DNA of 63,970 nt, filler included, from Atractiella rhizophila (GCA_021432655.1; 11 parts of 8 records of this genome joined end to end with filler, not necessarily neighbours in it); one strand, 5' to 3'; counted from the whole stretch's first letter, positions 9,926 through 48,940 are shown. The notes: generated from the sequence alone by a model not told the origin. A program made the numbers and translations.

Positions 9926-11164
9926 AACGCACGATAAGCTTGACCCAAAGAGTCTACACCGCGACTATCTTGGAAAAGTTCGGTTTCACAAACAGCTATG
10001 CCAGCGTACCGGCAAATCCCAAAATCAAACTCGAGCCTTTCAACGGCACATGGACTCAGGAGGAACTTGAAAACAGACCTGAGTGGTCCTTCCTCGAAGC
10101 AACTGGATGCCTGAACTGGCTCTCAGTCTGCACAAGACCTGATATCACTTATGCCCTTTCAAATGTCCAACGCTTCGCAGCCAATCCAGGGCCAGAACAT
10201 TTCAAGGCCGTAAAACAAATCTTTCGTTATCTCAGCGCCACGTCGAACAAAGGCCTTCTCTTCAACGGAAACGATCGTCGCCCCCTTCACGCATACGCTG
10301 ATGCCTCTTTCGCCTCTCTCCTACCTTCTCTCAAGTCCCAAGAAGGCCGCCTCACCATGCTTTGCGGCGCACCAATCACCTTCAAGTCAAAACCTCAAAC
10401 AGTAGTCGCATTGTCTTCCGGAGAAGCAGAGTATGGGGCCGCCGCCAAAGCAACTGCTGACCTGCTCTGGACAAGAGGCCTCTACTCAGAATTGGACGCG
10501 CTTCGAAGCGTTCACAACGTCCTTGATGGAGAAGACATCCCACCAACCACTGTCTATGAAGACAACCAAGCCGCGATAAAGATCTCAACGAATGGAGTGC
10601 ACCATGCACAAAGCAAGCCTTTCTTGCTTCGTTATCACATGGTACGAGACAACGTTCAGAAAGGGAACGTAATCCTACGGTATATTCCAACACGGCATCA
10701 AATAGCCGACGTCCTGACAAAACCGTTATCGAAAGACGCTTTCCATCAATGCATCCACGCTATGGGTGTACGAGACGTAGGAGAACGGATACAATTTTCA
10801 TAGAACAAGTTTCATACACTGATCACACACCATTTCTCAAACCGTCCCACCCATCCCAGCATCTGACACCATCTCCGACTACATTTTCCATCTCTCTGTT
10901 TTCTATCGGTAGCGTACGTAGTGGGAGTGTTGAACTGTCGTTGTTACTCTCGCTGATCTGCTTTCACTTTACGCCTCTTTCCGCATTTCGTATTGTTGTT
11001 CCGTCCGCTCCCGTAGTTTACTTCGCATTCTCACCTTACCTGAGGTTCATCTTTTGTCACCATCATTTCTGATGAACCTCAGGTAAGCCCTCCTGTCTCA
11101 TATAGTCATGTAATATTCATTGATCTTTTGTCACCATCATTTCTGATGAACCTCAGGTTCAACA
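9926..11164 (+). mobile_element. Ty1/copia 3' end: RT/RNase H (to 10803), PPT, 3' LTR family C (10928-11164)
   Basis: TRPDITYA, YADAS, SSGEAEY, YEDNQAAI, QIADVLTK; AGTGGGAG PPT abutting a 237-bp TGTTGAAC...GTTCAACA LTR. Confidence 0.95.
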
Positions 11165-11372
11165 GTGCCTTCATCATTCCGGCGTACTGCTCCATGAAAG
11201 GTTTAGTACTGGTGATTCCAACCAAATGATCATCAGCATAGACTCCAGCCATCTTGTACCCAATGTAGGCGCTCAAAGCGTAGATCGACTGAAGCATGGT
11301 CAACACTGTGACGGCAGGGATTTTGATGGTTGCTGAAAAGAGTGGAGGTCGCGGGGAGGCAGCTGAGTCCAT
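11165..11372 (-). pseudogene. 5' part of an unknown hydrophobic protein interrupted by the copia element
   Basis: Open frame MDSAASPRPP...QYAGMMKA runs directly into the LTR end. Confidence 0.4.
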
Positions 11373-11726
11373 TTTGAAGACGAATAGAGCTGGGAGAGTC
11401 AGAATAAACGAGCAATGAGATTACTGAGATGAGAGAGTAGTCCAACTTGAAGGCCTTTCCAAACGTGACTAGAGTTGAGCTTTGCCGGGGTCCTACCCCC
11501 GTTTGGTCTTCAACAGCCCGTGATCGGTTCGCTTCCTTCAGCTTCCGAATCATTTGGTTTTTAAGTACAATTTACTGTAAACAAGTCGTGAATAAACAGA
11601 ATTAAAAAGCACTGCAAGCTTGCTCTAAGCATCTTTCTCTGGGTACCGACCACTGCACTACTCGGAGAAACAACGAATATCTCATTCACGCTTTCAGGCT
11701 CTCTTTACTTTACAAACATTCATTCC

Positions 11727-12643
11727 TCAATCAGTTTTCTTCCCCCCTTTAGCAGCAGCCGGACCGGTTCCAGCCAAACTGTCATAATCCTTCTGCAACT
11801 CCCTCAATTGTCCTTTCAACTTCTCCACCTCCTCACTGTCCTTCCCTCCGGTGCCCACTTGTCTCTGAAGGCGTGCTAGGCCCTCTTGTGTTTTGATGAG
11901 GTCGAGAATGAGGGAGTAGGTGCGGGAGAGGATGCTGTATGTTGACCGAGAGGTTTAGAAAAGTGACCTAAAGGGTTGAAGGATAGGGGAGAACTTACAG
12001 AGAGAGGAAGAGCGTGAATCCATTGAGATACATGTTCCTTTCCCTACGAGCACCGTCCGTTAGCCGCGACACCAACTCAAGAAGGAAAGGTAAAGGGAAA
12101 GGCGTACGACAAAAACTTCTTGCTCCGCCACTCGTTCTCTGCTCCCAAATCCAACTTGATCCCCTCCGTTCTGTTCCTCGTCCCTTGCGCATGAATCTTC
12201 ATCATTTGTTGAAGGGCGTCAACGAAGAGGACGCCGACAAATCTGTACGCAACAGCCTTGGTCAGGGCTGGAAGCTGCGGAGTTGGGAGACGGACATGAA
12301 GAGTATTTTGAGGCCGTATTGCAGTTTTGCTATCTGTTGTCCACATGCCATAGATTAGTAGACAACACAAGTAGACGGGTCGGGAAAGGTGGAACAGAAC
12401 GTACAGTTGGAGATTCAGAGACGAATTTGAACATCGCTCTCCTCCAAGTAAACGGGATGGGAAGCTACGAACATCGGCAGTGAATGGAGAGCCGTGGCAG
12501 AAAAGGGTATACTGACGATAAGAGCCACGAAGAGTGACATTTCGAAGACGAGAAGGCAGAATACTATCCAGTTGTACAGCTATTTCCGTCACATCGTATC
12601 AATGAAAGGCTTGTTGCCAAGCAGAAAAAGAACGTACTGCCAT
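11727..12643 (-). CDS. Bap31/Yet3-family ER membrane protein
   Basis: MALYNWIVFCLLVFEM...LPIPFTWRR, FVDAL, RNMYLNGFTLFLSL, coiled coil, C-terminal KKTD ER-retrieval motif. Confidence 0.92.
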
Positions 12644-12975
12644 GGTTAATAGTTGTTTTGAGGCAAATTTTGTGGCTAAAAAGTGCGTTTGTGAAGGGAG
12701 AAGAAGGGCAGTCGTCGCTTTAAAGGGAGGAGACGTGGAATCGTTGACGTCAGACTTTCAGCGGTCACAACTCGGTAATTTCCTTCTCTGGAGTCATTAC
12801 CTGCGTCCACGCACGACCCCTCGCGCAGTTCAAACCCAAACGTCGATGCCTTGCAGTCGCACCAAATTAACTCAAGGCTTGAAATACAATGGCAAAGTCA
12901 GAGGGCAATTATGTATACAATCTGAGTTTCAACCTAGGGATGCACAGCGCTTTGTCAGGTCTTTGTGACTGAAGT

Positions 12976-14824
12976 TTAGCACTGGCTGGGACCTTGGGCG
13001 ATCTGACTTGCATCGCTAGGGAGAATTCCTGCGTCGACAGCTTTGGTATCTATTCGTAGTCATCAGAAAAATTGACAGAGGAACGAGAAGGAAACGTCGT
13101 ACAGCTCCAGGCGAAATCAGTTTCCGTCTTCCAAGTCCACCACGTCCATCCCCAGCTCTTCTCGAAAGTGCTAACCTCAGACGCAGCATACTGTTGATAG
13201 AATTCCAGACCCCCATCGGAATCAAGGGAGAAGTCGCCGTTCCTTAAAACTATATTCAGTTCAATGACATTGGGAAGAGATCTGAAGACCTTACTCGTTG
13301 ATCAATGCCAATGAGAACTCTCCAGCCATCACGGGCTGCTCTGCGTTCACATAGGAGTTGGCATCACACGCTCCCGCCAGCACTTCTGAACGAGTATCGT
13401 AAGCATCACCGCTGTACGCGAAATACCGCTGCGTGAATGGATCAGTCATCGTATCTGATAAATGGGAGGAGAGACGAACATGATCGTCAAAGATTACGTG
13501 GGTGTACCCGCTAGGGAGATTCTGCGAGGGATTTCCGCTTCCCCACGACCTTCATGTTAAAGGATCAACGTTCTGTAATTTAAAGGCAACAGGGAGAATG
13601 TTGACGAACGCGGCCATGAATACCTTGAAACTTCATCAACCTTGTCGCACCTGAAATTCAGCGAACAGGACTCACTATGTTCAAGCAATCCGTGTATGTC
13701 GTCCTCTTCCTCAGTCCAACATCATTCGATCCACGTGGTACCCAATCCCTCTTCCTGCTTGCCGTTTCCGTATTCATAGCACCGCACGAAACACCAAGCT
13801 GAGCCTCAGTATCTCTGACCGCTATACCGACAGGTTATCAGAGCTGAACCGTCGAAAGGAGAAGCCGTACTCTGATAAAAAGTAGGATAATAGCTGTCAA
13901 TAAGTCCGTTCTGAGCGCCAGAACGCGTAGGTTCGTTCACGGCTTCGATGGCAAAAACCGCTGCAAAGTCTGGGTCATTCGACTTCGACTGGGTCATGTT
14001 CCACGCCCAGAGCTTCGCGCGACCGAATGAATCTTGGTTGTAGAAGCCAGGAGTGTCGACTGTATGACCGGTGAAGGCTCTACGAAATATATCAGCAAAA
14101 GGAAGACGCTCGGAAGAAGCGTACTGGTTCTCGGTTTGCACTTGAGGTGCGGCATGGAGGTCGATCTCAGCGTACATCCCAGCATCTGAGATCCAGCTGA
14201 GGAGACGCTTCAGGTACGTGAATCCTCCAGTCGCATAATGATCGTCAGAAGTCTTGGTATCTTCGACGATCCAGTGGCCAACTGGGATGCGGACCGTGTT
14301 CCTACGTTCAATGTTCAAGTTAATATCGAAGTGGAAAGCAGGAGGAAGGGTGCTTACAAGCCGTAGGAGGCCATCTGGTTGATATCGTCTTGAGTGATCC
14401 AATTCGCCCAATGGGACTCAAAACCAGCCTGGGCTGACGGGTTATTCTGCATGCAAGTGTACTCGTCCGGATAGTCCCCTGCTTCACTGTTCACACGCTG
14501 CCTAAGATTTGGATGCTGGTCCGACTTACCACACCCGATGGCACTCCATTCGCCGCCCATCATCCATGGCCTGTGCACCGAATCGTTAAAGACGTATACG
14601 ATGCATTTGGGTGTGCAATAAATACTTACTCGACGATGAATAATCCACCCAGGTTTACGCCTACAAACCGCGAAGCCGTGAAAGCATGAGCGAGAGACCT
14701 TGCACCTTTATTTTATAGGACACTCACCGCGAATGATGCCTTGAGGTATGTTGGCCGAACCTCCAAGGGCTTCGCTAGCGAGTATGGCTCCGAGGAGCAA
14801 AGAAGGAGGAGTTCTCTTGATCAT
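12976..14824 (-). CDS. Secreted glycoside hydrolase family 5 (beta-glucanase-like)
   Basis: Signal peptide, GVNLGG..VEPWM, TVRIPVGHW, DLHAAP, acid/base AVNEP, nucleophile AGEFS, GWTWWTWK. Confidence 0.92.
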
Positions 14825-15693
14825 TGGAGGAAGCAAGTATAGATTGACGAAAAAAGGCGCGTTAAAGATTGGGAAATTTAAAGATTGATACTGGTGAATG
14901 AGTGGAACCAAAAGATGTTCACGACCTGGAGAAAAGAGTGCTTTATATCTCCTGCCAGCCTTTACACTGATTCGGTGGGAGCTATGTACCAGAACGCGGA
15001 GACCTTGAGGTCCAGTTTGGGGTTAATAGATAGTGACGTCCTTGCAAGCAGAACAGCGCGCACAACAGGCACTCAGGTGAAGCTGAGCTTGATGAAAAGA
15101 CGCGACATGTGCACGATTGCAGATCCTCCCCCGCCTGCCCCAGCCCATCATCCCCTCCCGCATCTGTTGTCAGGCAGCGATTCGGAGAAAGCAGATGGGG
15201 CTAAATTTGAATATTCCTTGCGTCCTTGAACAAGACAAGAATAAATAGTTCGTAGCCTGTGGGAGGAGAACGAGTCGGATCAATTTCACGCGCTTGAAAA
15301 TGCTTCAAGTCTGTGAATAACAAGAAAACAGTCATAAAAATGGCACTGAGTCTATCATTTGAATCCCATCTCGTGTCTTTCGTTATTAAGTCACCCTTGC
15401 GAAGACCTCTCTTGTGCGTCTTGTCAGGAAAGGAACCAACGCCGAACTGACGTCCTTGATTAATTTGATTCGTGTTAAAAGCTATAAGGCCGTACATCAG
15501 CTTAAACTGCTGGACAATGCCAGCAAGATGAAACGAAAGGCAAATGAAATGCGTTGATGACGAGCGGGAGAAGTTGCCTGTTTGGGAAGTCACCTCTGGC
15601 TCCTCATCCCAGTCTCCCCAAATCCAAGCGAAACCAATCATATTCCCCAGCTAGGTTACATAACTTCAGCTGAAGCGCCACAAAAGGACCAAG

Positions 15694-16410
15694 ATGCACT
15701 TCTCCCTCCGTCTGGCCTTCAGCCTCCTTTCCCTCTCACTCGCCTTCTCCAACACATCTCCCCTTCTCTCCCTCTCAGCGTATGTCTCCCCCTCATCACA
15801 CATCACATGTCCCATTAATGGTGGCTCTATGTAGCATACCTGAATCGACGGCAGAGCTGTGCGCATATGACAAAGTGGAGGTCTACCGCTCGTCGTCCCT
15901 TGTGAACGATTTGGATGCCATAAGAGCAGTAGTGAGGGCAGGAGGGGAGTTTAAGGCATTTGTGAGGGAGGGCGAGGAGTTGGAAGTCGCGGATAGGTTT
16001 AAAGTGGAATGTGGAGGTGAAGTGGAAGAGATCATGGGTCGTACGTTCCTCTCCTCACGATACAGCAAACTGGGGTATCAAACATGACTTATTGAGATAC
16101 AGGACCTTCCTCCCTCGCTCCCACCTCCAACATCCTCACATTCATCCTCCCCGCCATCAGCTCCTCCTCCTCCATGACCATCCAACGATCCTCCCCTGCC
16201 AAAACCAAACGGGCACCAGAATACGACAACACGCCCATCTTCCAAAAATACGTCCTCTTCACCCCCTCCCTCATCTTCGCCGTCCTCGTCGTCGGAATCT
16301 TGTTCATCCCCGCTCTATCCGTCGCTTCTTCCGCCCTCATTGCCACCGAGACGCCGGAGGGATTGGTGGGGAGGATGAGTGGGATGGGGAATGTTGTGGA
16401 GTCGAAATGA
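15694..16410 (+). CDS. Type I membrane protein, Voa1/Ac45-like V-ATPase accessory factor
   Basis: Signal peptide; C-terminal PIFQKYVLFTPSLIF followed by a TM helix. Confidence 0.6.
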
Positions 16411-18437
16411 TTTGGTATTTGTTTACGGTGGTCTGTGGCGAAGTGGAGATGGAGGATGGTGAATGTGTTGAGGTGAGCGACTTTGAGTTTGGTGTGTGCT
16501 GTGAGGCGGTGTGCGTATGAGAGAGGGTAAAATTATTAATCTCTTTGTGACGAAGGTTCGACCGAGAGAACCTTGTTCCGAGAATACCCTAAAATCAGAG
16601 AGGAACTATGAGTCTCGTTTGAAGAGCACGGTACAATTGCTTCCTATATCTTATACCGATATCTCAGAACCGCATATCTGAAGGCGCAAGTGCGTCACAA
16701 GCCTAGTCGTGTGAGGATTGCAATTCCAGGAGACTTGTCTCGCGATTCAACGCGCTAATAAGTCTCCATTCCATAATTCCATAATTTGAGGATTACAAAC
16801 GACATCAAACAGTATTCCAATAGGGAGAAATCACAAACTTCCAGCGAAGGCAAAAAAAGTTACTTACACTACCGACGAGTAGAGGGGTTGTCGGGGTTGT
16901 CGTCGAATCGATTATATGAACTACTCTTTTTTATCTCAGGCAGGACGGGTGAATTATGCCTTGATGGTTTTGATGTCCATTGATCCAGATACCAACGGCG
17001 AATGATGGAAGAGGGGAAGCCGAAGAATATTTTATCTGAGCAAGTCGTGCGCGTTCCCAGCTGAGGTGGAACAGTAAATCACACTTAAGATTGTTGTATT
17101 CTCTATCATGACACGAGGATGGTGTACAATTTTGTAGGGAAAAAAGAGAACAAAGGCTTAAGGATCACTTCCTCTTCATTTTCGCTAGCCACAAGGTGCA
17201 GAACTTCTTCAACGGGTCGTTTTGCGGCCTGAAGCTGCAAGTCGCGATGTGCCTCATAACTGTTTATTGTATCAGTTTCTGCTATTGAATTTTTTCTTTG
17301 CGTTGACGTACTCTCGTAGCGCTCTTTGCCTTGACATCTCCACGTGCAGAATGAGGGACACTGTTGGTCTATGTGGTAGGAGTTTTGAAAAAACATTGGA
17401 CGGGGATAGGCGAATACTTACTTTGGAACCACTCCCGGTGCTCAGAAATAGTAAAACCTATCGCGGGAAGGATTTCCTGTCCATCCACCTTGACCACTTT
17501 GTATGTTCCAACCGGGAAATGAACGAAGTCTTTCAACTCAAGGCCCGTCCTAATGCCAATGTTTAATCCGCGCAGCTTGAAGATAAAGTGGTGCACGCAC
17601 GCTTGTAGTAAGAAAAATTCGTCGCTAGCTGGACAGTCCAATTCCTTGAAGATATGAAAGTTTCTAGCTAAGGTGTTCATGATTTCTATGACTTCTGGCT
17701 ACGCTGCCGCTCTTAAGATTGTGCTTAATGCTGTTTTATTCACAGGTGTTTTTCTCCCTATATATAAGAATTGGCACTCGCCAACTGCCCTATGGGACCA
17801 GGCGAGAGCCATCAATGCTGGTATGGTTCGGGTGGTAAACTCCTTCTTCCGACACGGAACCTGAAGGAGTAACTGGCAAGCGGCTGTTGGCGACCGCCTC
17901 TTAACTACCTGCAGTGATACTTGTCGGAAAGACCAAACGGCATAAGGGTGGTGGCGCATCGGCGGCTCTGATAGTGTTTGGATCGTTTGTTACGTCGAGC
18001 ACCAGTCGTTTTCGACAGCAGGAACCGCCAAGGTGGCTCAAACTGATACTGATACTACTCGGCTCTTGACGAAGTAGGAGATTACATTTTTATTTGAGGG
18101 CGGAAGATTCTAGAGTTTGATAGGGCAATCTTTCATGATAAGGAGCATTACTCGCTGTTTGGGGTTTAAGCACGCTGATCTTGACCCGCGATACCTAAGC
18201 ATGATGCCACTAGCCGCAATATACATCCCCCTTTAGATTGCTCCCCCGTCAACAGGTATAAAACGAGGGTTGATTTACTCATCAACTTCCTTTCATTCTC
18301 TTCGACCAGAAAGAGTTGAAGTTACTGGTGGAGGAGACAAGTTGGCCGCACACTGACTGCCATGCAAATTCTGATAGTGATTGGTTGTACACTTGAGGTT
18401 ACGTCTGCCTGACACATTGTGCTCTTTTCAGAGCAAC

Positions 18438-18916
18438 TTAACAATAGTTGGGTGGTTGTACTCCCTCCTGCTTCACGCTTTCCGCCGCTCCAGCATTAGC
18501 CTTCGAAAAATCACCCAACACCTCCATTGTGTGCGCTTCCTCTTCCTCCGGCGTTTTTGACCAATGATAGGTCACATTGGACTCTACCGTATCCGGAATT
18601 CCTTTAAACTTGTGGAAGACTTTACCCGTGAGAGTAGTCTTGGTGGGTTGAACATCGATGGATATTATTCTTTGCTCCGCTTGTCATCTTCGAGAATATC
18701 GAGAGTCAAAGGAACGCACTCATGTGTCACGCCCTCGATAACTCCCATTTGTTGTCCTTGCCAAGCTCTGAATGTCTCTCTCCCAACGATAGGAGGATGG
18801 GTGCCTAGTGTCAAGCGTACATCTTCTGCGAATCGGGAAGTGTAGAGCGGCGTGTCAAGGGCATCGGAAGCTTCGATGGTCTGCAAGAATATCAGAACAT
18901 GTCCACTGAAATCCAT
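18438..18916 (-). CDS. SnoaL/NTF2-like protein with an apparent 1-nt frameshift near 18540
   Basis: FAEDVRLTLGTHPPIVGRE; one intron; MEVLGDFS tail in another frame. Confidence 0.6.
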
Positions 18917-19442
18917 TGCGAATGCAATGAGAAGGCAAAGATACCTTTCGTGCCCATGCTTCTCCAGCAGCACGTTGGGAGTCGGTCACTGACATGTCTA
19001 CTACTGTTGTGGGGAATGAGATAATAAAGAGAGGCAACAGGAGAGAGACACAAGGCCCGCCCTGTTATGGGCAGTCGCATAAACCTCAAATCTCCTGGGC
19101 ATTACACAACTCTGATGTAGCTGACTCTGCACAGACATAGTGAAAGCACGTTGCACCAATGGCGCCAGCCAGCGGGGTCAACAGGGAACAGACAAAAGAT
19201 AAGGGAAATCTTGTCCTAGCCCATTGCGGCAATTCCTTGGCGAGCTGAAAATCCGTTGTGTCTCAGAGATTTTGAACATCAATAATTCAGCTCGCAAAAG
19301 ATTCGGTTCGCTTTCTGACAGGCAACGGTGAAATAGTTCAATATGGGAGTAAATGTACCACAAGTGTCTAGAATTGTTTATGAGAGTCACATAATAAGCA
19401 GAAGTATGTCAAGTCGGTCAAAAGGATCAATGTAGACAGACC

Positions 19443-19710
19443 TCATTCAGATCCGCCATTCCTGAGCTTTACAGCAATCTCGAAATCCTTCAAAAACCTC
19501 CATCTTCCAACATTCTTAACATCAGTCTTCTCCCATCCATTGAACGTTCTCGGATACAACGGCAACATGTCCAAGATGCTTGTATCGTGAGCGACTATGA
19601 CAAAAACGTCTTCATGAGCATCGAAGGCTTCCATCTTCTCCACAGCTTTCTGGGCAAGGTCAAGATCAGCGTTCAAGGCGGGGTTGAGTTCATAGAAAGG
19701 TGTTGTGCGG
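19443..19710 (-). CDS. Metallo-beta-lactamase-fold lactonase/lactamase, C-terminus only
   Basis: KMEAFDAHEDVFVIVAHD ... RWRFLKDF. Confidence 0.75.
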
Positions 19711-19810
19711 NNNNNNNNNNNNNNNNNNNNNNNNNNNNNNNNNNNNNNNNNNNNTTAATTAATTAANNNNNNNNNNNNNNNNNNNNNNNNNNNNNNNNNN
19801 NNNNNNNNNN

Positions 19811-21074
19811 ATAGGCGAGGACGTTGAACAGATTAGGCACCCCCGATTTTTTCAAATCCTCGTAGACTTTACCCTCCTCAGCGGACGCTTCTTTCCTCCA
19901 CGTGTCCTTGAGAAGGACAGCTCGATCCAATTCCTCGTCATAGGCAATGAAGCACCTGGTACCACGTCCGAGAGGAAAGTGATGAGCCCTCGTAAACTCT
20001 CGGTGGAGCAACAGCGTCTTCTTCGCGACTTTGACAGAAAATACAGAGTCCACACTCCTGCTAATCCTCAGGATTTCCTTGATCCGGATATAGTTAAGTT
20101 TCGAGGCTAGATCTACTTGAGCGAAAGATGTATCTAGTCCTCGTTCGTGATCTTTTGCGTGTATGAATCGCCAAAGGAATTCCTGAAGATGGTCTGTGTC
20201 CTCTAGTGAAAACGAGACGGAAACCTCTGCGCAAGCACGCGAGTGACGGATTAGGCGGCAGGTATCAGCGTGAACGAAGAAGGAAAAGACCCTGGCTCGA
20301 AACTGGCGGGCTTGAATGATTGTGTTGTATAGCGTGATTTGGCCGCGAATGAGCTTGCCGTCGAGGCTCAGTGTCTCGAACACGGTGGCCTGGTCGTCGT
20401 CGAAAGCAGATCGACTGGGATGACGCGTCTCCTCCCCGTTAGTCGAGCTGTACTCCCTGAATTCCCCAAACAGCATGGCATGCCCCATGTCACAGACCTT
20501 ACGGTTGGAGTGTCTGCCGTGGAATTCTTTGTCGAAATAGAGAGTTAAGCCTGTGTTAACGGACTTCGCTCCGAAGATTCCGAGCGTGTTGTTGTCGGGA
20601 TGGGTCGACGTGTTAACGAGACTCCAATTCCCTCCATGATCATTTACTTCCCGCAGCATGGGGTCAAAGGCAGCTATCTGTAGCGAAGTGTCAGCACGCA
20701 ACTCTGGCTGACAGAAAACCTAGGCCGCAGGAAGCTAGCCAGAGAGCACAGGCGGTGGAGAGGAGCCTGTAGAAATCACTCACCAATTGATCGTATTTCT
20801 GTGTCTCAGTTGGCTTTTCGTCCAGCTTTAGTTTGATTCTCTTGCTGAACTTCTTTGGTGCCTTTGGTAAAAAGTCGAGAAACGCTTCAATATCCACCTT
20901 TACAAACTTCCCCCTCATCTCTCGTTCCGCCTTCACATAACTCTCCCTTTCATCTGAAAATAGGGTGTGTTCTTCGCCTCCCGACTGGCTGTCACTAATT
21001 GAGGTGCTTGTAGCGCCAGAGGTGAACATTGGAGCTAAACTTTCTTGCCTGAGTGTGGAGGGCGGAGTCGACAT
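19811..21074 (-). CDS. Fungal-type protein kinase (FunK1/Pkinase_fungal), N-terminal part
   Basis: GQITLY...QFRARVFS, FLWRF...RGLDTS, GRGTRCF, LLKDTWR, EEGKVY...GVPNL. Confidence 0.88.
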
Positions 21075-28548: not shown

Positions 28549-28621
28549 GATCAGTTGGAATTTTGAATTTTCTAATTTGCTACCAACTTGGTTGAAAATT
28601 TTGACCACTCAGACATCTGTT

Positions 28622-30473: not shown

Positions 30474-30722
30474 TGTTGGATTAGCTGTTAAATTTCATGG
30501 TGTTGTCTTAGTGTGGTCAGCCACCTTTGCTGTGTTTACTCACTTCGTAGTTTGTCTCCCTAGGGGGCAGTCTTGGTGGTTATCATCTTTGACCACCAAC
30601 TCCTGTCCCCTAGGTATGTGTTTCCTCATCAATCCTATCATCTTTGACCACCAACTCCTGCCCTAGCTCCATCCAGCGTCTATTTCTCTCATGGTAGTGA
30701 GAGCTGTGGCTAGGGATTGACA
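30474..30722 (+). repeat. Copia LTR family A, intron-containing form
   Basis: TG...CA ends; hairpin, GTATGT...CTAG intron and direct repeat. Confidence 0.85.
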
Positions 30723-30789
30723 GATCAGTTGGAATTGCAATTTTCAATTTTGCCACCCACTTGGTTGAAAATTTTGACCACTCAGCCAT

Positions 30790-33664
30790 CCTTTGTCCAA
30801 TATATGAGGGCAGTCCTGTTTGCTGAGATCGTGTCCAACATTGAGAGGAGTAAGGACAGGGTTGCAATCGTCCATCTGTTGGCGTTCCAGAAGATCCTTG
30901 ACATACTGTTCTTGATCCAACCACATCATTCTTCGCTTCCTATCCCTCCTAATGCGAACCCCAAGTAGGAATTCCGTTGGTCCAAGGTCTCTGAGCTTAA
31001 ATCGCTTCCCTAACTCCCTCTTGAAGTCCTCTACAGCACCCTTTGATGTGCTAGCGATCGTAATATCATCCACAAAGACTGGGACAAGTACTTTGATGTC
31101 CCCCTTCGAGTAAATCCAAACACTGGCATCACTCTTGATCTTGATAAAGCCCATGGATGTGATTTCCTTGTCAAATTTCTTCTGCCACTGACGTCCTCCT
31201 TGCCTGGTGCCGTAGATTGCTTTGAGGAGTTTGAGAGCATATTCTGGGGAACCTTGAGGGTGACCTTCTGGCTGCTTGGCATAGACTTCTGCATCCATTT
31301 CGCCATTTAGGAACGCTGTGGAGATGTCCACAGACTCTAACTCCATATCCAGGACACAGGTGAGTGAAAGAATCATCCTAAGTGTCGCCCATTTGACCGT
31401 CGATGCGAAAGTGTCAAAGTAGTCGAATCCAGGGCGTTGAGAGAACCCCTTGATGACGAATCTGCCCTTGAAGCGCTCAATAGAACCATTTGACTTCTTC
31501 TTAACCGCAAACACCCCCATTGAGAACCAACGATTCTTGCTCCTTATAGGCGGTTTGACCAGAATCCAACTCTTGTTGTCCAAGTGAGATTGAATCTCCT
31601 TCATGAGAGAATCTGATGCTGGATGGAGCTAGGGGACAGAGATTAGTGGTCAAAGATGATGACCGCCTAAACTGCCCCCTAGGGGGCTAAAACTCCGAAA
31701 TGAAGCAAACACAACAAAGGTGGCTGACCACACAACACAAGACCACGAAATATAACACCTAATCCAACACTCCCACCTGGGCAGCCACCTCTTGAAGCTC
31801 CCACCAAATCCAAGAACTGTCCAAGACCACAAAATATAACACCTAATCCAACACTCCCACCTGGGCAGCCACCTCTTGAAGCTCCCACCAAATCCAAGAA
31901 CCGTCCAAGATAGCCACCGAACAAAGCTCCCACCGAATAAAGACAAGCATGAAATAGCATGGCAAAAAGAAAACATATTAGTTGACTGTCTAAAACCAGT
32001 AGAGAGATCCTCATACCGCTTAAAGCGGCGTCTTATAACCCCCCCGGAAGGAGGACACAGTTTTATTGCGCCCCATAACTGCCTCATTCACTTGGGTAGG
32101 GGCGCAGACCCATCATTTCTCGAATTACAACTCCAGCAACCGGTAAGCCTTGGTGAGGAGGTCTGCAGGCATAGACTCGCCAGGGCAGAAGACTGGGGTG
32201 ATGAGTCCAGCTTCTACTGTGTCCCTGAGCCAGTAGAAGCGAAGATCCAAGTGCTTCATGTGTCCATGGTGAGAAAATCTGATGCTGGATGGAGCTAGGG
32301 GACAGAGATTGGTGGTCAAAGATGATGACCGCCTAAACTGCCCCCTAGGGGCTAAAACTCCGAAGTGAAGCAAACAAAACAGAGGTGGCTGACCACACAA
32401 ACATAACAGAAATATAACACCTAATCCAACACTTCTTTCCAACAGGATCCCAGAACTCCCACCCTTTCGCTGCAAGGGAATAGCCTATAAATGCGCATTT
32501 TCGAGTATGAGATCCTAAGCTGTGTGCCCTTTCATCCTTCTGAACTTGAACGTAAGCAGTGCATCCAATGATTCTGAATCTTGAGATGGTTGGAGTAAGT
32601 CCAGTGAGTTTTGTGTGGGGAATAGCATGGTTGATTAAAGCTGAGGGAGATCTGTTGCGAATGTGGACGACTGCTGAAGCAATAGATGGCCAGAGAAAGA
32701 GTGGAAGTCCCGATTCTTCAAACATGGCGACCATAGTCTCCTGAATCGTCCTATTAGCTCGTTCTGCCCTGCCATTCTGGTGAGGAGAGTTCCTGATCGT
32801 CTGTTCCCGCTGAATACCACAGGCCTTGAGGTATTGATCGAATTCCTTAGAGGAATAAGCACCTTCATTGTCCTCTCTAAACTTCTTGACCTTCTTCCCA
32901 GTAACATTCTCTACCCAATTCTTGAAGGTCTTGAAGAGTTCTGGGGCCTCTGATTTCTTCTTGAGGAAGGCAATTGTGCAATGATTCGTCGCTTCATCGA
33001 TGAAGGTGACCCAATATCGATATCCTTCTCTGGAAGTGACTGGAAGAGGTCCATGCAGGTCTGAGCTGATCCTACCCAGTACTTCCTTCTCCCTGGTCTC
33101 TGCTGACTTGTTGAAGACCCTATGCTGCTTCCCAGCTAGGCATGGCTCACAAATAGGGTCTGGATCATCCTCCAGGTCCAAAATCATCCCATTCACAAGT
33201 TCCTTCCTCTTCAGACGCTTGATGTCCTCATAATTCAGGTGTCCAAGTCTCCTATGCCATAGAGAAGCATCCATGGGCAGTGTAGAAGCATTCCCAGCAA
33301 ATTCTGGAGCAGGAAGGGTGTTTCCCATCAAGTATCCCAGCCATGCTTCCATTCTTGTAGTCCACAGTGGCAGTAAGGCAGAGTTTTTTGATGCTGGAAG
33401 AAGAGAACCTTGTTGTGCTTGATGGAGACCCTCATTCCCTTGTAGATGGTAAGCTTGAAAGACTGATAGAAGGTTGTTGTAGAGCTTGGGGACATGTAGG
33501 ACATCTGAGATGGTGATGGTGATGGTCTTCTTCTCCCCCAACTTGGCTTCAAAGATCAAGCTCCCAATCCCAGCACTCCAAATCACTTCTCCACTTGCTA
33601 CCCTAATAGGAATAACCTTCTTCTGATAGGTTCTGAACCAATGGCGATGGGGAGACATGTGGGA
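30790..33664 (-). mobile_element. Rearranged copia mosaic: integrase, LTR-A fragment, RNase H end, 3' UTR/PPT (84-bp tandem duplication ~31741-31910), LTR-A fragment, RT
   Basis: KGFSQRPGFDY, VDISTAFLNG, FVDD, HLDLRFYWLRD; LTR fragments at ~32271-32430 and ~31605-31770. Confidence 0.92.
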
Positions 33665-33764
33665 NNNNNNNNNNNNNNNNNNNNNNNNNNNNNNNNNNNN
33701 NNNNNNNNTTAATTAATTAANNNNNNNNNNNNNNNNNNNNNNNNNNNNNNNNNNNNNNNNNNNN

Positions 33765-34802
33765 GTAGTAGAAAGGGCAACGAGGGATTGTAGTTTGCTG
33801 CTCCAACTGACCGCTCCATTGCCTATCTTGAGGAGATAGCCTCCCGTAGAATGTCCAGTATCCTTGCACCCAGCAAAATCTGCATTGCAGAAAGCATGAA
33901 AAGGTTGCTTGAGGTCAAAACCAGCTGCAGAATACTCAATTCCTAAGTTCTGAGTGCCTTTGAGGTACCGTAGAAGATGCTTGGCCGCTTCCCAGTGCTT
34001 CTTTCCTGGGTTAGAGAGGTACTTTCCAAGGACAGAGACTGCATGAGCGATATCTGGACGAGTGGAGATGGCCAAGTACATCATGGAGCCAACAACGTTG
34101 CTGTAAGGGATTGTGCGCATTTCTTCCTGTTCTTCCTTTGTCTGGGGGCAGTCCTGCTTGCTGACACCGTCTCCAACGTTGAGAGGAGTGAGGACAGGGT
34201 TGCAGTCATCCATCTGTTGGCGTTCTAGAAGGTCCTTAACATACTGTTCTTGATCCAACCACATAATTCTTCGCTTCCTATCCCTCCTAATACGAACCCC
34301 AAGTAGGAATTCCGTTGGTCCAAGGTCTCTGAGTTTGAATCGCTTCCCTAACTCCCTCTTGAAGTCCTCTACAGCACCCTTTGACGTGCTAGCGATCGTA
34401 ATATCATCCACAAAGACCGGGACAAGTACTTTGATGTCCCCCTTCAAGTAAATCCACAGACTAGAGTCGCTCTTGATCTTCTTAAATCCCATATCGACAA
34501 GTTCCTTATCAAGTTTCTTCTGCCATTGACGCCCTCCTTGCCTTGTGCCATAGATGGCCTTGATTAGCTTCAGAACGTACTCTGGAGGACCCTGTGGATG
34601 ACCTTCTGGTTGTTGTGCGTAGACTTCTGCATCCATATCGCCGTTAAGGAATGCCGTAGAGATATCCACTGACTCCAGCTCCATGTCCAAGACACAAGCG
34701 AGCGAAAGGATCGTCCTAAGTGTCGCCCATTTGACCGTAGATGCGAAAGTGTCAAAGTAGTCGAATCCAGGGCGTTGAGAGAACCCCTTGATGACGAATC
34801 TG

Positions 34803-34839
<37 letters not shown>

Positions 34840-35988
34840 TGTTAAGGACCTTCTAGAACGCCAACAGATGGATGACTGCAACCCTGTCCTCACTCCTCTC
34901 AACGTTGGACACGGTCTCAGCAAGCAGGACTGCCCCCAGACAAAGGAAGAACAGGAAGAAATGCGCACAATCCCTTACAGCAACGTTGTTGGCTCCATGA
35001 TGTACTTGGCCATCTCCACTCGTCCAGATATCGCTCACGCAGTCTCTGTACTTGGAAAATACCTCTCTAACCCAGGAAAGAAGCACTGGGAAGCGGCCAA
35101 GCATCTTCTACGGTACCTTAAAGGCACCCAGAACTTAGGAATTGAGTATTCTGCAACTGCTTTTGACCTCAAGCAACCTTTTCACGCTTTCTGCGATGCA
35201 GATTTTGCTGGGTGCAAGGATACTGGACGTTCTACGGGAGGCTATCTCCTCAAGATAGGCAATGGAGCGGTCAGTTGGAGCAGCAAACTACAATCCCTCG
35301 TTGCCCTTTCCACAACCGAAGCAGAATATGTCTCAGGGGTCTCAGCCGGCCAAGAAGTCGTCTGGCTAAGGAATCTTTTAGAAGAAATTGGCTTCGCTCC
35401 TCAAGGTCCTACTCCCCTCTTCACAGACAGTAGCAGCACTCTCCAGGTATCCAAGAACCCTGAGCACCATGGTCGAATGAAACACCTGGACCTTCGCTTT
35501 TATTGGCTCAGAGATGTTGTTGAGATGGGCAAGATCAGTCCAGTCTTCTGTCCGGGGGTCAACATGCCAGCGGACCTCCTTACCAAGGCACTTCCAGTCG
35601 CCAGTGTAGACAAGTTTCGAGTTATGATGGGTTTGCGCCCCTACCCAAGTGTCTGAGGCAGTTATGGGGCGCAATAAAAATTCCTTTCCTCCTCTGTGGG
35701 GTTATAAGACGCCGCTTTAAGCGGTACGAGGACTTTTCCTCTTCTTTTCATTGCAAAACTAATATGCTTTCTGCTTTATATCGAGTATACATTGTGTGAA
35801 TTCGGTGGGAGAGTCTCTGGATTTGGTGGGAGCATCAAGAGACAGCTGCCCAGGTGGGAGTGTTAGTTGTAGTGGTTATTTTGGTCATCTGCCTCTTATG
35901 ACTCTTATGACTGGTATGAGTCATCACTATGTAGTTTAGTTCTGCCTAGGAGTGTTGGTGCTCATTATTGACCACCAACCACTCCTAG
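33765..35988. mobile_element. Divergently oriented copia RT fragments around an A32 tract; plus copy continues to RNase H (stop 35656), PPT and LTR-B (35860-)
   Basis: STRPDIAHAV, FCDADFAG, STTEAEY, PADLLTK; GGTGGGAG|TGTTAG. Confidence 0.92.
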
Positions 35989-36662
35989 NNNNNNNNNNNN
36001 NNNNNNNNNNNNNNNNNNNNNNNNNNNNNNNNTTAATTAATTAANNNNNNNNNNNNNNNNNNNNNNNNNNNNNNNNNNNNNNNNNNNNGAAAAAACTATT
36101 CCCCAATCGTTCACGTGAGCGGCTGGACCTACAAATCGTAAAGCAACCAGGGGGATGCTGCCGCGGGATAAGGAAGGCGAAGCAGAGGTTGGGACTGACA
36201 AATTATAGTAAAATTCAAAAGAAAAGTCTGCCCAGCAATCTTGCAGGTATAGTCACTTTATCGAGTAGCCACGCAGGTTGGATGAGCGAAAACTGGAGCG
36301 ATGTGTCAATGGTTTGATGGTGGTCCAGCGAGAGGAAGCCCGAAGACAAAGGGTTTCCTCAACCTTATCTCAGACTAATTGAAATATCACCTGACCGTGG
36401 AACCACGTTCAAGCTTTAATTTCTTTGGCAGTGATGTCGCAGTATTGCACTTCAGTCTGAGGAGCAGTATTGCATCTGTTTATTTAGAGATCCCTGAAAT
36501 TTGCACACAGAAATAGAAATAAGTTCATCAAAAGCACTATATGTCGGCCGGTTAAAACGATATGAAATGGTGAAAATCGAAGGTTTGGAAGTACTGATGA
36601 ATATAAATCATAATGAGAGGCTGCAGGTATTCAGTTCTGTTTTCGCTGGGATCCATGAAGAA

Positions 36663-39592: not shown

Positions 39593-41372
39593 TCACTCTC
39601 CTCCCTCCTCCAACCACTTGTTCCAATCATCCATCCTCTTCTTTTCCTCCTCTTCCGTCGCCTTGTCGGGCACGATCGCTTCCTTGTCTGCGCTCTTTCG
39701 AAACTTGGGTTTTCCCTCCAGGAGGGCAGCTTGGATCTGTCGGCCGCCAAAGAANNNNNNNNNNNNNNNNNNNNNNNNNNNNNNNNNNNNNNNNNNNNNN
39801 NNNNNNNNNNNNNNNNNNNNNATCAAGAGACGTCAGCCAGTAGTTCTTTGAGAGAGATGATTGGAGAGAAGAAATTCGGAAGAGGACGTACGAGGACGCA
39901 TGCTTGTGCGGAGAGCTCATCCTTGAAACGGATGCTCATAATCCCTTCTGGTTCTTTCTGTTCCCACAGATGTGAAATCAGTATCGACAATGGAATGAAG
40001 TGAAGCAATGGTGAGAAGACGCACATCGTAGAGAACAACATTGGTGACCTCGCCTAACTTGCCACATTCTTCCCTGACATCCTCCTTCAAATCGAGCAGC
40101 AAGCTCGGATCTTCTTCCAGCTCGGCGAGCGTAAACATCTTTCGGAGGATAACAATCTTAGGTAACTTGTTCAAGGTCTTTAATGCGTCCTCTTCGTCTG
40201 AGGACCAGTCAGTAAGTTTCCTGCGTGAACGTTCGCGGTCAGGTTTCGATTGGGAACTGCTTGAGACGGAGGGAAGAGGTGGAGGGGCATACATCTTAAG
40301 TTTTTCGGCCTGCTTCCCCTGCTTCTTCTTCTTCATCTCCTCACTCTTCGCCATCCCGTTCCCATTCCCCCCTCCCCTCCCACCTGCTTCCCCATTCCTC
40401 GTCGAATCGACCTCCATCTTCTTTCCAAAGTCAGCCTTCACAACCCTCATCCTATTCCCCTCGCCACCTTCCGCGCCTGGTTTCCCCTCCTCTTCTTCTC
40501 TCTCCAAAACCGTGTCATCCAACAAGGTGGTAGCCAGCACAACGCTTTCTTCCCTCAAATAAACGACGAGTGCCTCCCCCTTGAACCGTCCCTCCGAATC
40601 ATAATACATCTTGATCTTCGGTTCTCCATCCGACGACTCCAAGATCACTCCGCCTTTGAGGAAGGTCCGATGGAGGAGCTCAACGGTGGTATAGGAGGGA
40701 AGATTGGAAACGAACACGGCGGTTTGACGGGGTGGAGGGGCGGCGGAAGTGGAGGCTTTGGAGGAATTGCTCTTTTTCACTTTTCCTCGTAGGATCGCTG
40801 GCGTGTCGTCGTCGTCGTTGTCTTGCTTCTTTCGTTTCTTCCCACGATTCAAGACTGGCGCAGCTGGCGTCTAATTCGCCCAAAATTGTTAGCATGTTGC
40901 TTGGTCATATGTTTCTGCTCTTATAGAGCGAGGCCAATCCTCTTTGGTTCATTCTGGAGCCTTCATCCAGCATAGAAGGAAAAGCCATAGCGAGGGATGC
41001 AGCGGAACGTCTGAGCGAATGCATCGTCCAATGTTCACAAGCGCTCACACTCCCCGCTTCCGTTTTATTAAAAGGCACGTTCTCGTCTCATTCCTTCGGT
41101 GGTGACTTCACCGCACCCCAGCCCTTGGTGCATCGTAGAGAAAGGGAGAAGAAACCCACCTGCTCATCAACCCCTTGGACACTATAAGCCTCCTGCTGCC
41201 TTTTGATAACCTCGTCATCCACACACTCCACCCACGTTGCCTTCCCATCGTCGTATTCGTACTCTTTCCCACTGGCGTCGTCTTCGAACTTCCATTTCCC
41301 TGTGAGACGGTCAAAGTGGATGCGTGGGTCTGGATCCCCTCCTGCTGAAGGTGGGAAGGACGGCTGCGACAT
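39593..41372 (-). CDS. CUS2: U2 snRNP-associated factor Cus2/Tat-SF1 (RRM + UHM); internal N gap
   Basis: AVFVSNLP, KIKMY...FKGEALVVYLREESV, ILRKMFTL, DLKEDVREEC, FFGGRQI. Confidence 0.93.
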
Positions 41373-45885: not shown

Positions 45886-46149
45886 AAAGCAATAAAAGGA
45901 AAACTCGGAAATAAGACATACTGAGCAGTACAAGTGAGAAAGGACAATAAAGCAATAATGGAGACGGTGCAGACCGGCGAAATGTATAAGGTTTGCTGAG
46001 CGGCGATTCGTGTGAGACAGGGGAAGGCGGCGATCAGCGAGAACGTGAGCAAAGCGGCGATGGGCAGGCGCGTGGTCCTATGGCATGGTAAAGTGGGTCA
46101 CGTGACTTCAGATGGTGCATTTCGGTAATGCGTAGGGGCAAGCCTGACA
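45886..46149 (-). repeat. Partial LTR (family E, TGTCAGG end) abutting gypsy pol
   Basis: Ends CCTGACA like the 48370 solo LTR; gypsy coding similarity starts immediately after. Confidence 0.55.
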
Positions 46150-47965
46150 ATGAACTGACGAAAATCGAGGTCTCCTGGGTCTGGAGGGTAGATCAGCAAC
46201 GTTCATTCAACGCTTTGAAACAGCTCATGACTTGGGCGCCCATTTTGGCACATCTCGAACAAATAAGACGATTTTTGCTCGAAGTCGACGCATCAAATTT
46301 TGCGACGGGCGCCGTTTTGTCGCAAATGAAGTCAGATGACAAGTTTCACCCTCTCGGTTTCGTGTCAAAATCGCTCAATGCTGCCCAGAGAAACTATGAC
46401 ACCTATGACAAAGAAATGCTTGCGATTATGTGGGGGCTGCAAGAATGGAGACGTCTTCTTCAGGGTACTGATGAGCCATTTCTGATCTTGACAGACCACA
46501 AAAACCTTGAATATTTCAGGATGCCACAAAAGTTAATCGGCGACAAGTGAGGTGGATCACTGAACTTGCATCTTTCAACTTCACAATTTTATACCGTCCC
46601 GGACAAAACTCCGCAAAACCAGATGCGCTCAGTCGGCTACCCGATCACAACCCGGCCACTCGCAACAAGTTCGATGTAGTATTACTCCCAGAGCGTTTTT
46701 TCAACACGGATTGTATTACCATTAGTGCAACACGGAGTGCGGTTGCGCTCACAAGGCAAATGTCGGAGTTGAGCATACTGGAGCGCGTGAAAAGATGCCT
46801 GAACGGGAAGAACGGGTGGTCAAAGCCTTGATAGAGATCCTGGACGAACCAGTCAATTCCATTCGCCGACGCGAATGGCAAGAAGTCGACGGCGCTGTCT
46901 ATTTTCACGGAAAACTCTACATTCCTCGCGACGACGAAATTCGCCGCTCGATTTTGCAAGATCTGCATGATTCGCAAATCGCCGGTCATCCAGGCGTAAA
47001 ATCGACGACGGCTCTCGTGAAAAGGTACTACTGGTGGCCAGGTTTGGCGCATTACGTCCGCCGCTACGTCGGCGCCTGTCACACTTGTCACAGAACGAAA
47101 AACTTTCCTTCCCGACCTGTCGGGTTTTTGCAACCAAATGATATTCCCACACGTCGTTGGCAAATCATCAGCATGGACTTAGTTGGACCACTCCCAGAAT
47201 CGGGGGGGTTTGATACGATTTTCGTCATAGTAGACAGACTCTCAAAACGTACCTGTCTCATACCTACTCATTCGACGATGGATGCGGAAGGCATTGCAAG
47301 ACTTTTCGCGATCATGTATGGAAGTTACATGGACTTTTCGATGTTGCAATTTTCGATCGCAGAAAAGAGTTTGTGTCCAAACTCACATTGGCACTTTTTC
47401 GCCTTTTAGGCATCAAATGTTCACATCGACAGCCTACCACCCATAAAGTGGTGGCCAGACTGAACGTATGATATGAACCAAGAAGTTGAACAATATTTAC
47501 ACATTTTCTGCAACAACCTTCAAGATAATTGGGTGGAAGGACTTCCCAAAGCAGAATTTGCGCTCAACGATCGTGTCAGTTCGGCGACGGGCGTAACTCC
47601 ATTTTCGCTCGATTGCGGTCAACATCCTCGCATGGCCTTTGAACCCATCTCTGACGAGGATGTTCCCGAAGCGGCGCAATTCGTTGAAAAGATGCAAATC
47701 GCTGACCGGGAAGCACAAGCGGCACTCGAACAAGCAGCTGATCTCATAGCAAAGCATTATGACAGAAAATGCGCACAGGTGCCCGAATATCATGTCAGCG
47801 ATTTCGTCTGGTTGAGCGTAAAAAACATTAAATCAACAAGACCTGTCAAGAAGTTGGACGACAAATGGCATGGCCCCTTTCACGTTTTGCACGTTTTTTG
47901 TAACCCCTCAACCTTAAACTCGAGTTACCATCCTCATGGAAGATGCATCCAGTGTCGCATGTTGG
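46150..47965 (+). mobile_element. Degenerate Ty3/gypsy pol (RNase H, integrase)
   Basis: VDASNFATGAVL, YDKEMLAI, TDHKNL, HD...AGHPG, YWWPG, SMDLV; frameshifts and stops. Confidence 0.93.
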
Positions 47966-47968
47966 CCA

Positions 47969-48940
47969 TCTCGCGAGTTTGCTCTCTCGCGTTTGCAGTC
48001 TTGCGAGTTTGCATTCTTCGCATTCTCGCCAGTTGGCCGTCTTGCAGGTTTGCTGTCTCGCAAGTTGGCCGTCTCGCGAGTTGGCAGTCTCGCAAGTTTG
48101 CTGTCTCGTTAGTTTGCTCTCTTGCGTTTGCTGTCTTGCGAGTTTGCAATCTTGCTACTTTGCTGTCTCGCTAGTTTGCATTCTTGCTAGTTTGCATTCT
48201 TGCTAGTTTGCATTCTTGCTAGTTTGCTGTCTCGCGAGTTTGCATTCTCGCTAGTTTACTGTCTCGCTAGTTTACTGTCTCACTAGTTTGCTGTCTCGCG
48301 AGTGTGCTCTCTCGCATTTGCAGTCTCGCAAGTTTGCTATCTCGCGAGTTAGCTGTCTCGCAAGGCAACTGTTAGGGCTGACACTATGTGCGGTCGCTGA
48401 CAGGCGATGCGTCTGTAGTGGAGATAAACCTAAGTGCATGATATGACATGAAGACTAACCTGTAGTGGAGATAAACCTAAGAGAATACTCTGAGGTCACC
48501 TCCACTACTCTCTGATCTATATATACAAGCGGAATAACACTGCCACAGAGCGTAGAGGAGAGCAGATGAAACATGTAAGAGAACTAAAAGGGAAGTGACA
48601 GTGGGATTACGCGGAGTTAATAAGAGGAGGGTAGGCACAATTGGGCTAAGTGGTGATGTAGGTGCAAATGGGCGACGGGAGACGCAGTGGCGACGGGCGC
48701 CGATTCGCAGGGAACGCAAATGGGCGATAGGAGACGCAATCCGGCGAACGGGCGCCGATTTGCATAAGATGCAAACCTGACAGCAACCTAGCATTTGGGT
48801 TCACCTCGCAAGTTTGCCATCTCGCGAGTTTGCTGTCTCACGAGTTTGATGTCTCGCGAGTTTGCTGTCTCGCGAGTTTGATGTCTCGCGAGTTTGTTGT
48901 CCCGTGAGTTTGTTGTCCCGCAAGTTTGCTCTCTCGCGCA
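47969..48940. repeat. 16-bp minisatellite (consensus TCGCGAGTTTGCTGTC) in two blocks, ~47969-48363 and ~48805-48940
   Basis: Directly visible periodicity. Confidence 0.9.
48370..48782 (-). repeat. Solo LTR (family D, 413 bp)
   Basis: TG...CA ends, imperfect terminal inverted repeat, perfect GCAAC target-site duplication, TATATATA. Confidence 0.9.

Follow-up and report, generated by a model that had tools for sequence, protein, structure and literature searches.

Long terminal repeats (LTRs) of Ty1/copia-type retrotransposons and of one or more other LTR families were found to hold a short intron-like segment ending in a copy of the sequence that precedes it, in a stretch of 63,970 nucleotides (filler included) from the fungus Atractiella rhizophila (GCA_021432655.1), referred to below in its whole length as the window. 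The segment, 47-83 nt long, is probably a genuine spliceosomal intron located in the LTRs of these fungal elements, with the repeat representing exon 1, and it would be rebuilt in every replication cycle. We infer splicing itself, the start site of transcription, the asymmetry between 5′ and 3′ LTRs, the landing site of strand transfer and the role of the hairpin described below; the mechanism as a whole is strongly supported at the level of comparative sequence. An earlier note on the same DNA had pointed to this design in four LTRs (A, B, C and D) and had proposed a self-restoring intron. All its coordinates were reread and the four sites are as it claimed, each LTR having a hairpin at or over AG|GT and a GT..YAG segment of 47-74 nt that ends in a repeat of the hairpin loop and 3′ arm. 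The extent of LTR-A was corrected: this LTR ends at 30691, and the sequence beyond it is primer-binding site and leader. The window consists of 12 contigs chained by N44-TTAATTAATTAA-N44 linkers, with 21 runs of N (e.g. 9826-9925, 19711-19810 and 35989-36088), so that order and distance across the gaps are meaningless; a single plain gap (N67) lies at 39755-39821. Its fungal origin is seen in a match to a fungal-type protein kinase and in the 49-72 nt GT..AG introns of host genes in an RNA sequencing run.

LTR-C (10928-11164, plus strand, 237 bp, TGTTGAAC..GTTCAACA), with the purine tract GTAGTGGGAG just upstream, is the 3′ LTR of a copia element truncated by the contig start at 9926. Its hairpin (11035-11087) has a perfect 17-bp stem with AG|GTAAG inside the 3′ arm. 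The first repeat copy (R1, 11049-11082), the proposed exon 1, would reach from the start site to the 5′ splice site, and the proposed intron (11083-11156; 74 nt, GTAAGC..CAG) has the second copy (R2, 11123-11156) as its last 34 nt; the repeat is 34 nt long, or 36 counting the shared GT. Downstream of the proposed intron, 8 nt (11157-11164) are left to the LTR end. A second, 100% identical copy of this LTR stands as a solo LTR on the minus strand (62480-62716, proposed intron 62561-62488), flanked by the 5-bp target duplication TCATC (62717-62721 and 62475-62479).

LTR-B (28618-28811, plus strand) is the 5′ LTR of a copia element, with a hairpin at 28698-28742, R1 at 28714-28741 and a proposed intron at 28742-28796 (55 nt, GTATGT..CAG), the R2 of which (28769-28796) differs from R1 by one mismatch. 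LTR-A (30474-30691, plus strand) has its hairpin at 30559-30614, R1 at 30582-30613 and the proposed intron at 30614-30666 (53 nt, GTATGT..TAG), with R2 in its 3′ part and a 1-nt indel between the copies. Directly 3′ of these two LTRs stand a primer-binding-site-like sequence, TGCTAGCG at 28812, and the primer-binding site TGGTAGTGAGAGC at 30692, respectively. LTR-D (48370-48782, minus strand) is a solo LTR of 413 bp that begins with TG, ends with CA and is flanked by a target duplication of 5 bp, GTTGC (48787-48783 and 48369-48365). It shows the motif TATATATA at 48525-48518, a hairpin at 48508-48462, R1 at 48481-48460 and a proposed intron at 48459-48413 (47 nt, GTTAGT..CAG) with R2 at 48434-48413, after which 43 nt remain to the LTR end. 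The downstream exon, exon 2, is thus shortest in C (8 nt), followed by B (15 nt), A (25 nt) and D (43 nt). In A, B and C, the proposed intron runs in the same direction as pol, purine tract and primer-binding site. C and D had been called unrelated, and by DNA sequence they are; C is from a distant copia element, D from an unplaced family.

The layout common to all four sites is an inverted repeat with its 3′ arm ending at or over AG|GT, then a unique stretch, then a second copy of loop and 3′ arm ending in CAG or TAG. Predicted folding energies of the hairpins were -28.5 kcal/mol in C (z -8.1, more exactly -8.07; AG|GTAAG within the stem), -27.1 in B (z -5.2) and -38.2 in A (z -6.9), the stem reaching the G of GT in the last two, and -30.1 in D (z -4.5), where it stops 2 nt short of the junction; none of 200 shuffles folded as well as the real hairpin at any of the four. 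When the window was scanned for direct repeats with exact, spaced copies (at least 16 nt, period 30-200), A, B, C (twice) and D were the only non-tandem matches in 64 kb; the rest were three tandem arrays. The four-site arrangement is far beyond chance. The segment is confined to one fixed LTR position in sense orientation, and no free copies of it, such as an introner-like mobile unit would leave, were found in the window.

For a wider comparison, metagenome contigs were scanned with the B-type pol C-terminus, yielding 80 loci that are 52-59% identical to the query, apart from locus L001 (97%). Spaced repeats were detected in them by a sequence-agnostic script that required exact copies of at least 16 nt with a period of 35-130 and used only AG together with GT or GC at the borders. 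AG|GT or AG|GC borders occurred at 48 of 75 sense-strand spaced repeats vs 4 of 75 antisense ones, which bears out the enrichment of GT and AG at repeat ends across families that the earlier note had expected. The architecture was found at 44 of the 80 loci by script and at two more by eye: L005, where it is split over contig ends, and L048, which then shows the apparent start of another unit. After removal of identical sequences, 47 distinct instances (43 metagenomic and four from the window) were left; statistics on the borders are based on 46 of them, leaving out the L010 copy, which is cut by a contig start. At L028 the LTR pair (249 bp, TGTTGA..TCAACA) has the proposed intron in both members, with 3 differences in 249 bp. 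Contigs of L005 and L050, which start exactly at the repeat and hold repeat and exon 2 with no unique part, were considered as spliced transcripts and rejected, because contigs would end at these points also through breaks of the assembly graph at the repeat or through a mix of intron-bearing and intron-less forms. No contig of the 80 loci ends in the poly(A) or poly(T) by which transcripts could be recognised. A search of viral contigs with the copia integrase gave no relatives, and the exact 22-nt LTR-C pattern had no match in the metagenome contigs.

The borders of the segment read as splice sites also at positions outside the detection criteria, with G at +5 in 38 of 46 instances, T at +6 in 40 and a pyrimidine at -3 in 44. 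Among the 47 instances the commonest donors were GTATGT (11), GTGTGT (7) and GTGAGT (6). GC donors are a known minor canonical class; five distinct instances are of this GC-AG kind (GCATGT or GCGAGT) and lie in one well-supported clade. Of the features of a U2-type intron, the segment shows a consensus 5′ splice site, a YAG 3′ splice site and a host-typical length (47-83 nt in the 47 instances vs 49-72 nt for host-gene introns in the RNA run). In the search for a branch point, a loose CTNAY was present in most instances; both it and an AATA-rich motif (AATATA, AATACA, TAATA) are non-specific. The latter lies directly before repeat copy 2 (e.g. 11108-11122 in the window), occurring in the last 10 nt of the unique part in 26 of 47 instances vs 1 of 47 near the intron 5′ end. 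One might speculate that it serves as branch site, or else that it positions poly(A) addition and is removed by splicing at the 5′ LTR.

The two repeat copies evolve together. The instances fall into 21 repeat families, the last 20 nt of which have a mean identity of 0.39 between families, and within each detected instance the copies are exact over runs of 20-35 nt (an exact run of at least 16 nt being needed for detection). Requiring identical copies inflates the apparent identity within elements. In minimum spanning trees drawn for each family, the substitutions between related elements number at least 57, and each is mirrored in both copies. Likewise, A and B differ in loop and arm, and copy 2 of each LTR tracks its own copy 1. 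Private mismatches occur in old dead copies (B, A and the 3′ LTR of L028), as expected after insertion. Independent drift of an old duplication cannot account for such mirrored copies, and selection for pairing with the arm is insufficient, since it would hold the 3′ arm only and the loop half is kept as well. Copying of exon-1 cDNA (complementary DNA) into the copy-2 position in each cycle, as proposed here, does explain the concerted evolution seen in these sequences.

The left border of the repeat appears to sit at the expected start site of transcription. Of the 47 instances, 12 have a strict TATA box. It always stands 33-44 nt ahead of the base with which copy 1 begins, and in 10 of these cases the distance is 33-36 nt. 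A pyrimidine stands just before copy 1 in 42 of 46 instances, and the 8 nt preceding copy 1 have a pyrimidine fraction of 0.68 vs 0.51 further upstream. This TATA spacing, together with concerted evolution, suggests a putative role of the repeat as R region, which would then stand at both ends of the genomic RNA. The 5′ arm of the hairpin lies in the spacer between the TATA box and the predicted start, and the median fold energy was -29.2 kcal/mol with the upstream arm vs -3.2 for RNA starting at copy 1. The hairpin had a z of -2.6 or lower in 46 of 47 instances, and copy 1 pairs over at least 8 nt with the upstream 38 nt in 45 of 47, the exceptions being L010 (the cut copy) and L047. In the 22 instances with the motif of the primer-binding site, exon 2 spans 9-57 nt up to it.

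We propose the following cycle. Exon 1 would be the 20-35 nt from transcription start to 5′ splice site, repeated as the intron end that abuts exon 2. Transcription from the 5′ LTR would start at copy 1, downstream of the 5′ arm, so that the leader RNA would be without the hairpin and would be spliced. At the 3′ LTR the U3-encoded arm would be transcribed, pair with copy 1 and bury the 5′ splice site, and the intron would be retained. Minus-strand strong-stop cDNA made on the spliced leader (exon 2 plus exon 1) would match perfectly copy 2 plus exon 2 at the RNA 3′ end; having annealed at copy 2, it would be elongated across the intron's unique part, copy 1 and U3. By this transfer and extension the new LTR would regain the intron, with its copy 2 as a fresh copy of exon 1. 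The hairpin would also conceal copy 1 from the incoming cDNA, directing transfer to copy 2. The self-restoring model of the earlier note is partly supported: its sequence-level predictions, as far as they were examined, were all borne out (GT and AG enrichment at repeat ends, conserved splice positions, placement of the start site, concerted evolution in 21 families and the existence of intron-less LTRs), and its RNA-level steps stand as predictions. A fuller version of the cycle, which we consider less likely than not, is that of a copia lineage replicating from spliced genomic RNA with a ‘split R’ LTR: the upstream R would serve as exon 1 and start, and the downstream R as transfer acceptor near the RNA 3′ end; the intron may hold a poly(A)-positioning signal lost by splicing at the 5′ LTR, and at the 3′ LTR the U3 arm would block splicing and hide copy 1. 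That intron-dependent expression is the benefit to the element is speculation.

The intron could instead be spliced from the messenger RNA while unspliced RNA is replicated, as retroviruses do, the likeness of the two copies being due to selection, e.g. for pairing of both with the U3 arm, by which the two splice sites would be controlled. The arm can indeed pair with either copy, as the 3′ arm sequence is identical in both, and the splice signals are conserved. We consider this unlikely, since selection on pairing would keep the 3′ arm only, yet the exact runs of 20-35 nt include the loop; a repeat that begins at the expected start site and at least 57 exactly mirrored substitutions would also be left unexplained.

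The distribution of the trait bears on another explanation. A quick-search tree built on the pol C-terminus (83 rows, support by the SH-aLRT branch test only) has carriers on all major branches. The 19 loci without any such LTR repeat form one clade with support of 99 (repeats were sought down to 10 nt, and for 11 of these loci the stretch searched included a primer-binding-site motif), and intron-less L053 and L058 are each sister to a carrier, L015 and L021, respectively; 13 of the 80 loci were uncovered or unclear for the trait. Judged by this tree, the trait is old in this copia lineage and has occasionally been lost. The pol of the LTR-C element is the most distant row of the tree (31-39% identity), and this distance, together with the unplaced D, means that the design reaches further or arose more than once. 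The same cycle could run as a neutral by-product: an R-region intron that is spliced only at the 5′ end would have its 3′ end overwritten by exon 1 in strand transfer, to no benefit, with the hairpin serving transcription or transfer. Its mechanism is identical to that of the self-rebuilding intron, the sequence evidence applies equally to both, and no evidence of a benefit was obtained. Nevertheless, we regard it as quite unlikely: the trait is kept on all major branches at only 52-59% pol identity to the query, a strong hairpin is always present between TATA box and start, and persistence with few losses suggests selection, which is an argument and not a test. Very unlikely is a segment without splicing, i.e. 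a doubled R region or a device for strand transfer or packaging, made and homogenised by template switching of reverse transcriptase and with incidental GT and AG: reverse transcriptases do delete and duplicate between short direct repeats, intron-less forms exist and L048 possibly has an extra unit, yet the excess of AG|GT or AG|GC borders on the sense strand (48/75 vs 4/75), the agreement of +5, +6 and -3 with the fungal splice consensus in 83-96% of instances, the conserved GC-AG clade and lengths of 47-83 nt that resemble the 49-72 nt of host introns all speak against it.

Intron-less LTRs, both in the window and among relatives, consist of exactly the arm, one repeat copy and exon 2. An A′-type LTR of this kind (28353-28517, plus strand) has arm, one repeat copy and downstream exon, followed by a degenerate primer-binding site and leader to 28617. 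An A″-type internally deleted element (31606-32433, minus strand), inserted in another copia pol, consists of 5′ LTR (32433-32270), pol end, purine tract and 3′ LTR (31771-31606), and both its LTRs are intron-less.

Three sequencing runs hold parts of 10900-20800. Two of them (X1 and X2) contain small shares, with pieces of host genes only. The third (X3) is RNA stored as contigs, as seen from 49-72 nt GT..AG joints in host genes, and it was compared over the contig 9926-19710. An X3 contig with a depth of 9.6 extends from the 3′ part of pol over the left border of LTR-C and through U3 as far as 11078, where it stops; the 31-mer 11049-11079, the first one common to both repeat copies, comes right after this stop. 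A break at 11078 would be expected if the junction between the unique part and copy 2 were also present in the X3 RNA.

Several points weigh against the self-rebuilding intron. Among the X3 matches listed there was no 11082/11157 joint and no contig over 11079-11164, which at such poor cover is no evidence of absence, and no spliced read, mapped 5′ end or mapped 3′ end was obtained. A strict TATA box is missing in 35 of 47 instances, A, B and C among them, and the G at +5 in 8 of 46 donors (e.g. GTATCT and GTACTG). The survey contigs are unannotated and many are collapsed assemblies; the requirement for identical copies misses elements with diverged copies and scores them as lacking the feature. 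The intron-less variants are no proof of splicing, because a deletion between the copies by slippage or recombination leaves the same sequence. Furthermore, L077, a full-length close relative of L028, has a 5′ LTR with the proposed intron (2105-2243) and a 3′ LTR without it (approximately 6940-7019), which does not fit simply: this asymmetry is unpredicted by the simple cycle and needs a later deletion or a plus-strand slip.

The order of pol domains, protease-integrase-reverse transcriptase, and the copia-type reverse transcriptase are those of Ty1/copia elements (Pseudoviridae), and Pfam recognised gag_pre-integrs, rve, Pol_BBD and RVT_2 in the open reading frames (ORFs) 29663-30484, 30744-31628, 32345-33712 and 33713-34852. 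In the LTR-C element the pol C-terminus (RNase H region) was located at 10054-10773 on the plus strand by tblastn, the B-type pol C-terminus being the query (31% identity over 243 aa). The B element has an ORF at 28948-29472, which had no Pfam match and is gag by position only, and then the protease/integrase at 29663-30484. A B-type 3′ LTR (35861-35988, plus strand) follows a pol end and the purine tract CCAGGTGGGAG; here the assembly breaks, at 35988, exactly past the exon-1 end ..CTCCTAG, and L001 is the complete intron-bearing homologue of this LTR. The LTRs have TG..CA ends and 5-bp target duplications, a purine tract ..GGTGGGAG lies directly 5′ of 3′ LTRs, and the primer-binding motif GGTTATGAGCCC stands directly 3′ of LTRs in 22 of the 47 distinct instances (L028 and 21 others). 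Two kinds of primer-binding site were observed, the TGGTAGCG type after the LTRs of A, B and L001 (28812-28824 and 30692-30704 in the window) and the GGTTATGAGCCC type after those of most metagenome relatives; in the intron-less clade the site is GGTTATGGGCCC. We take these sites to match the 3′ end and the anticodon arm of initiator tRNA-Met. No Rfam family was found in the window, and a tRNA scan of it was empty.

The purine tract and the LTR start are duplicated just 5′ of the 3′ LTR as an 84-bp tandem in the window (31738-31905), and the same duplication occurs with a period of 32-75 in L013, L022-L030, L036, L043-L045 and L079, e.g. around ..ATCAGGGGGTTGTG. A segment of copia reverse transcriptase/RNase H is present as an inverted duplication (33765-34251 vs 34830-35316, 96.7% identity), which meets at a run of A/T homopolymer (34800-34850; poly-K/poly-F in the ORFs) and might have been produced by the assembly at the start of a contig. 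Around LTR-C, an X3 contig with 98% identity begins precisely at the right-hand border of the LTR and goes on with sequence foreign to the LTR, which suggests an allele or paralogue without the LTR-C insertion. To the right of LTR-C (11165-11421 and 11700-13900 in the window) lies a minus-strand gene with introns of 49-72 nt that is very highly covered in X3, and an ORF starting near 11383 on the minus strand is cut by LTR-C. LTR-D is an insertion into an array of 16-nt tandem units, which flanks it on both sides (47985-48396 and 48805-48986) and lies downstream of a truncated gypsy element (RNase H and integrase, 46092-48171, plus strand). LTR-D was considered as part of this neighbouring plus-strand element and rejected, as it has the opposite orientation and its own target duplication. 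A 26-nt spaced repeat at 53582-53670 was likewise rejected as a further case of the spaced LTR repeat, being an array of four tandem copies of a 21-nt unit among unnamed ORFs, one of which (53273-53581) ends just before it.

As in the earlier note, which knew of no prior description, our search of full-text literature found no account of LTR introns whose 3′ end is a copy of exon 1; most subscription journals lie outside its coverage and an older account may exist. Since the classic Ty1 experiment on intron loss, retroelements have reportedly been taken to lose introns that are spliced from their template, and the exceptions known to us keep unspliced RNA as the template. In human T-cell leukaemia virus 1 (HTLV-1) and bovine leukaemia virus (within the R region), and in foamy viruses, the leader splice donor is located inside the LTR. 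The likeness to the elements described here is that the 5′ splice site, being within the LTR, is present at both RNA ends and use of the 3′ copy must be avoided. The retroviral acceptor, however, lies far downstream, the intron extends beyond the LTR and exon 1 is not repeated; as the unspliced RNA is the template, there is nothing to rebuild. Introns are also gained by tandem duplication of an exon segment containing AGGT, a process in which, similarly, the two splice sites come from a direct repeat and removal of the intron gives back the original sequence. Unlike in that process, the fungal LTR repeats exon 1 only, its unique part is single and the repeat would be re-made at each replication. 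In DIRS elements the internal complementary region offers a further likeness: thanks to a duplicate of a terminal segment, complete ends can be rebuilt from a shortened RNA. A likeness is also found in the control of the poly(A) site and splice donor in human immunodeficiency virus 1 (HIV-1), where sequence present only upstream of the start makes the LTR copies behave differently in RNA. Both differ in being other elements with no intron involved and with other enzymes, DIRS using a tyrosine recombinase.

Introns within LTRs have been reported for LTR-contained transcripts of maize, which the authors call the first such evidence (bioRxiv 10.64898/2026.05.08.723830). These introns have a mean length of 1303 bp and are read as processing of non-coding RNA; in the portion of the preprint available, unlike for the fungal LTRs, they come with no exon-1 repeat, hairpin or link to reverse transcription (bioRxiv 10.64898/2026.05.08.723830). 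Ogre, EVADE, copia and BARE elements have internal introns that give subgenomic gag RNA (PMC12786077; PMC5580714, PMC3735527), Ogre and EVADE being the exceptions with internal introns listed in the accessible part of a plant review (PMC12786077). They resemble the present elements as LTR retrotransposons that use the host spliceosome; their introns, as far as the available text of that review goes, differ in lying in the internal region and tuning the gag/pol ratio, with the spliced RNA not serving as template and the intron not regenerated (PMC12786077). For transposons of yeasts, the accessible part of the source has only spliceosome-coupled RNA interference, which is fed by poorly spliced transposon RNA, and a cryptic intron in Tf2 (PMC7175516).

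If the proposed cycle is true, an LTR that rebuilds its own intron in each round would be a new solution to the loss of introns, and spliced RNA could be the replicating genome of a retroelement. Accumulation of messenger RNA depends on introns in Cryptococcus and Schizophyllum, as stated in the earlier note, and the cycle would account for how parasites that are otherwise intron-less cope in fungi where introns are said to be required for RNA to accumulate and where transposon RNA that is badly spliced feeds RNA interference (PMC7175516). The LTR would also represent a compact natural module of splice control, in which an arm encoded in U3 silences a splice site only at the 3′ copy. On the ‘split R’ version, one device would tell the 5′ LTR from the 3′ LTR, pass the RNA off as a spliced host message and preserve the intron. 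The arrangement has a searchable signature, namely a hairpin, an AG|GT and, ahead of a 3′ splice site, a repeat of exon 1, within approximately 60 nt of the LTR end, and this signature could improve both the annotation of fungal LTRs and the prediction of their start sites.

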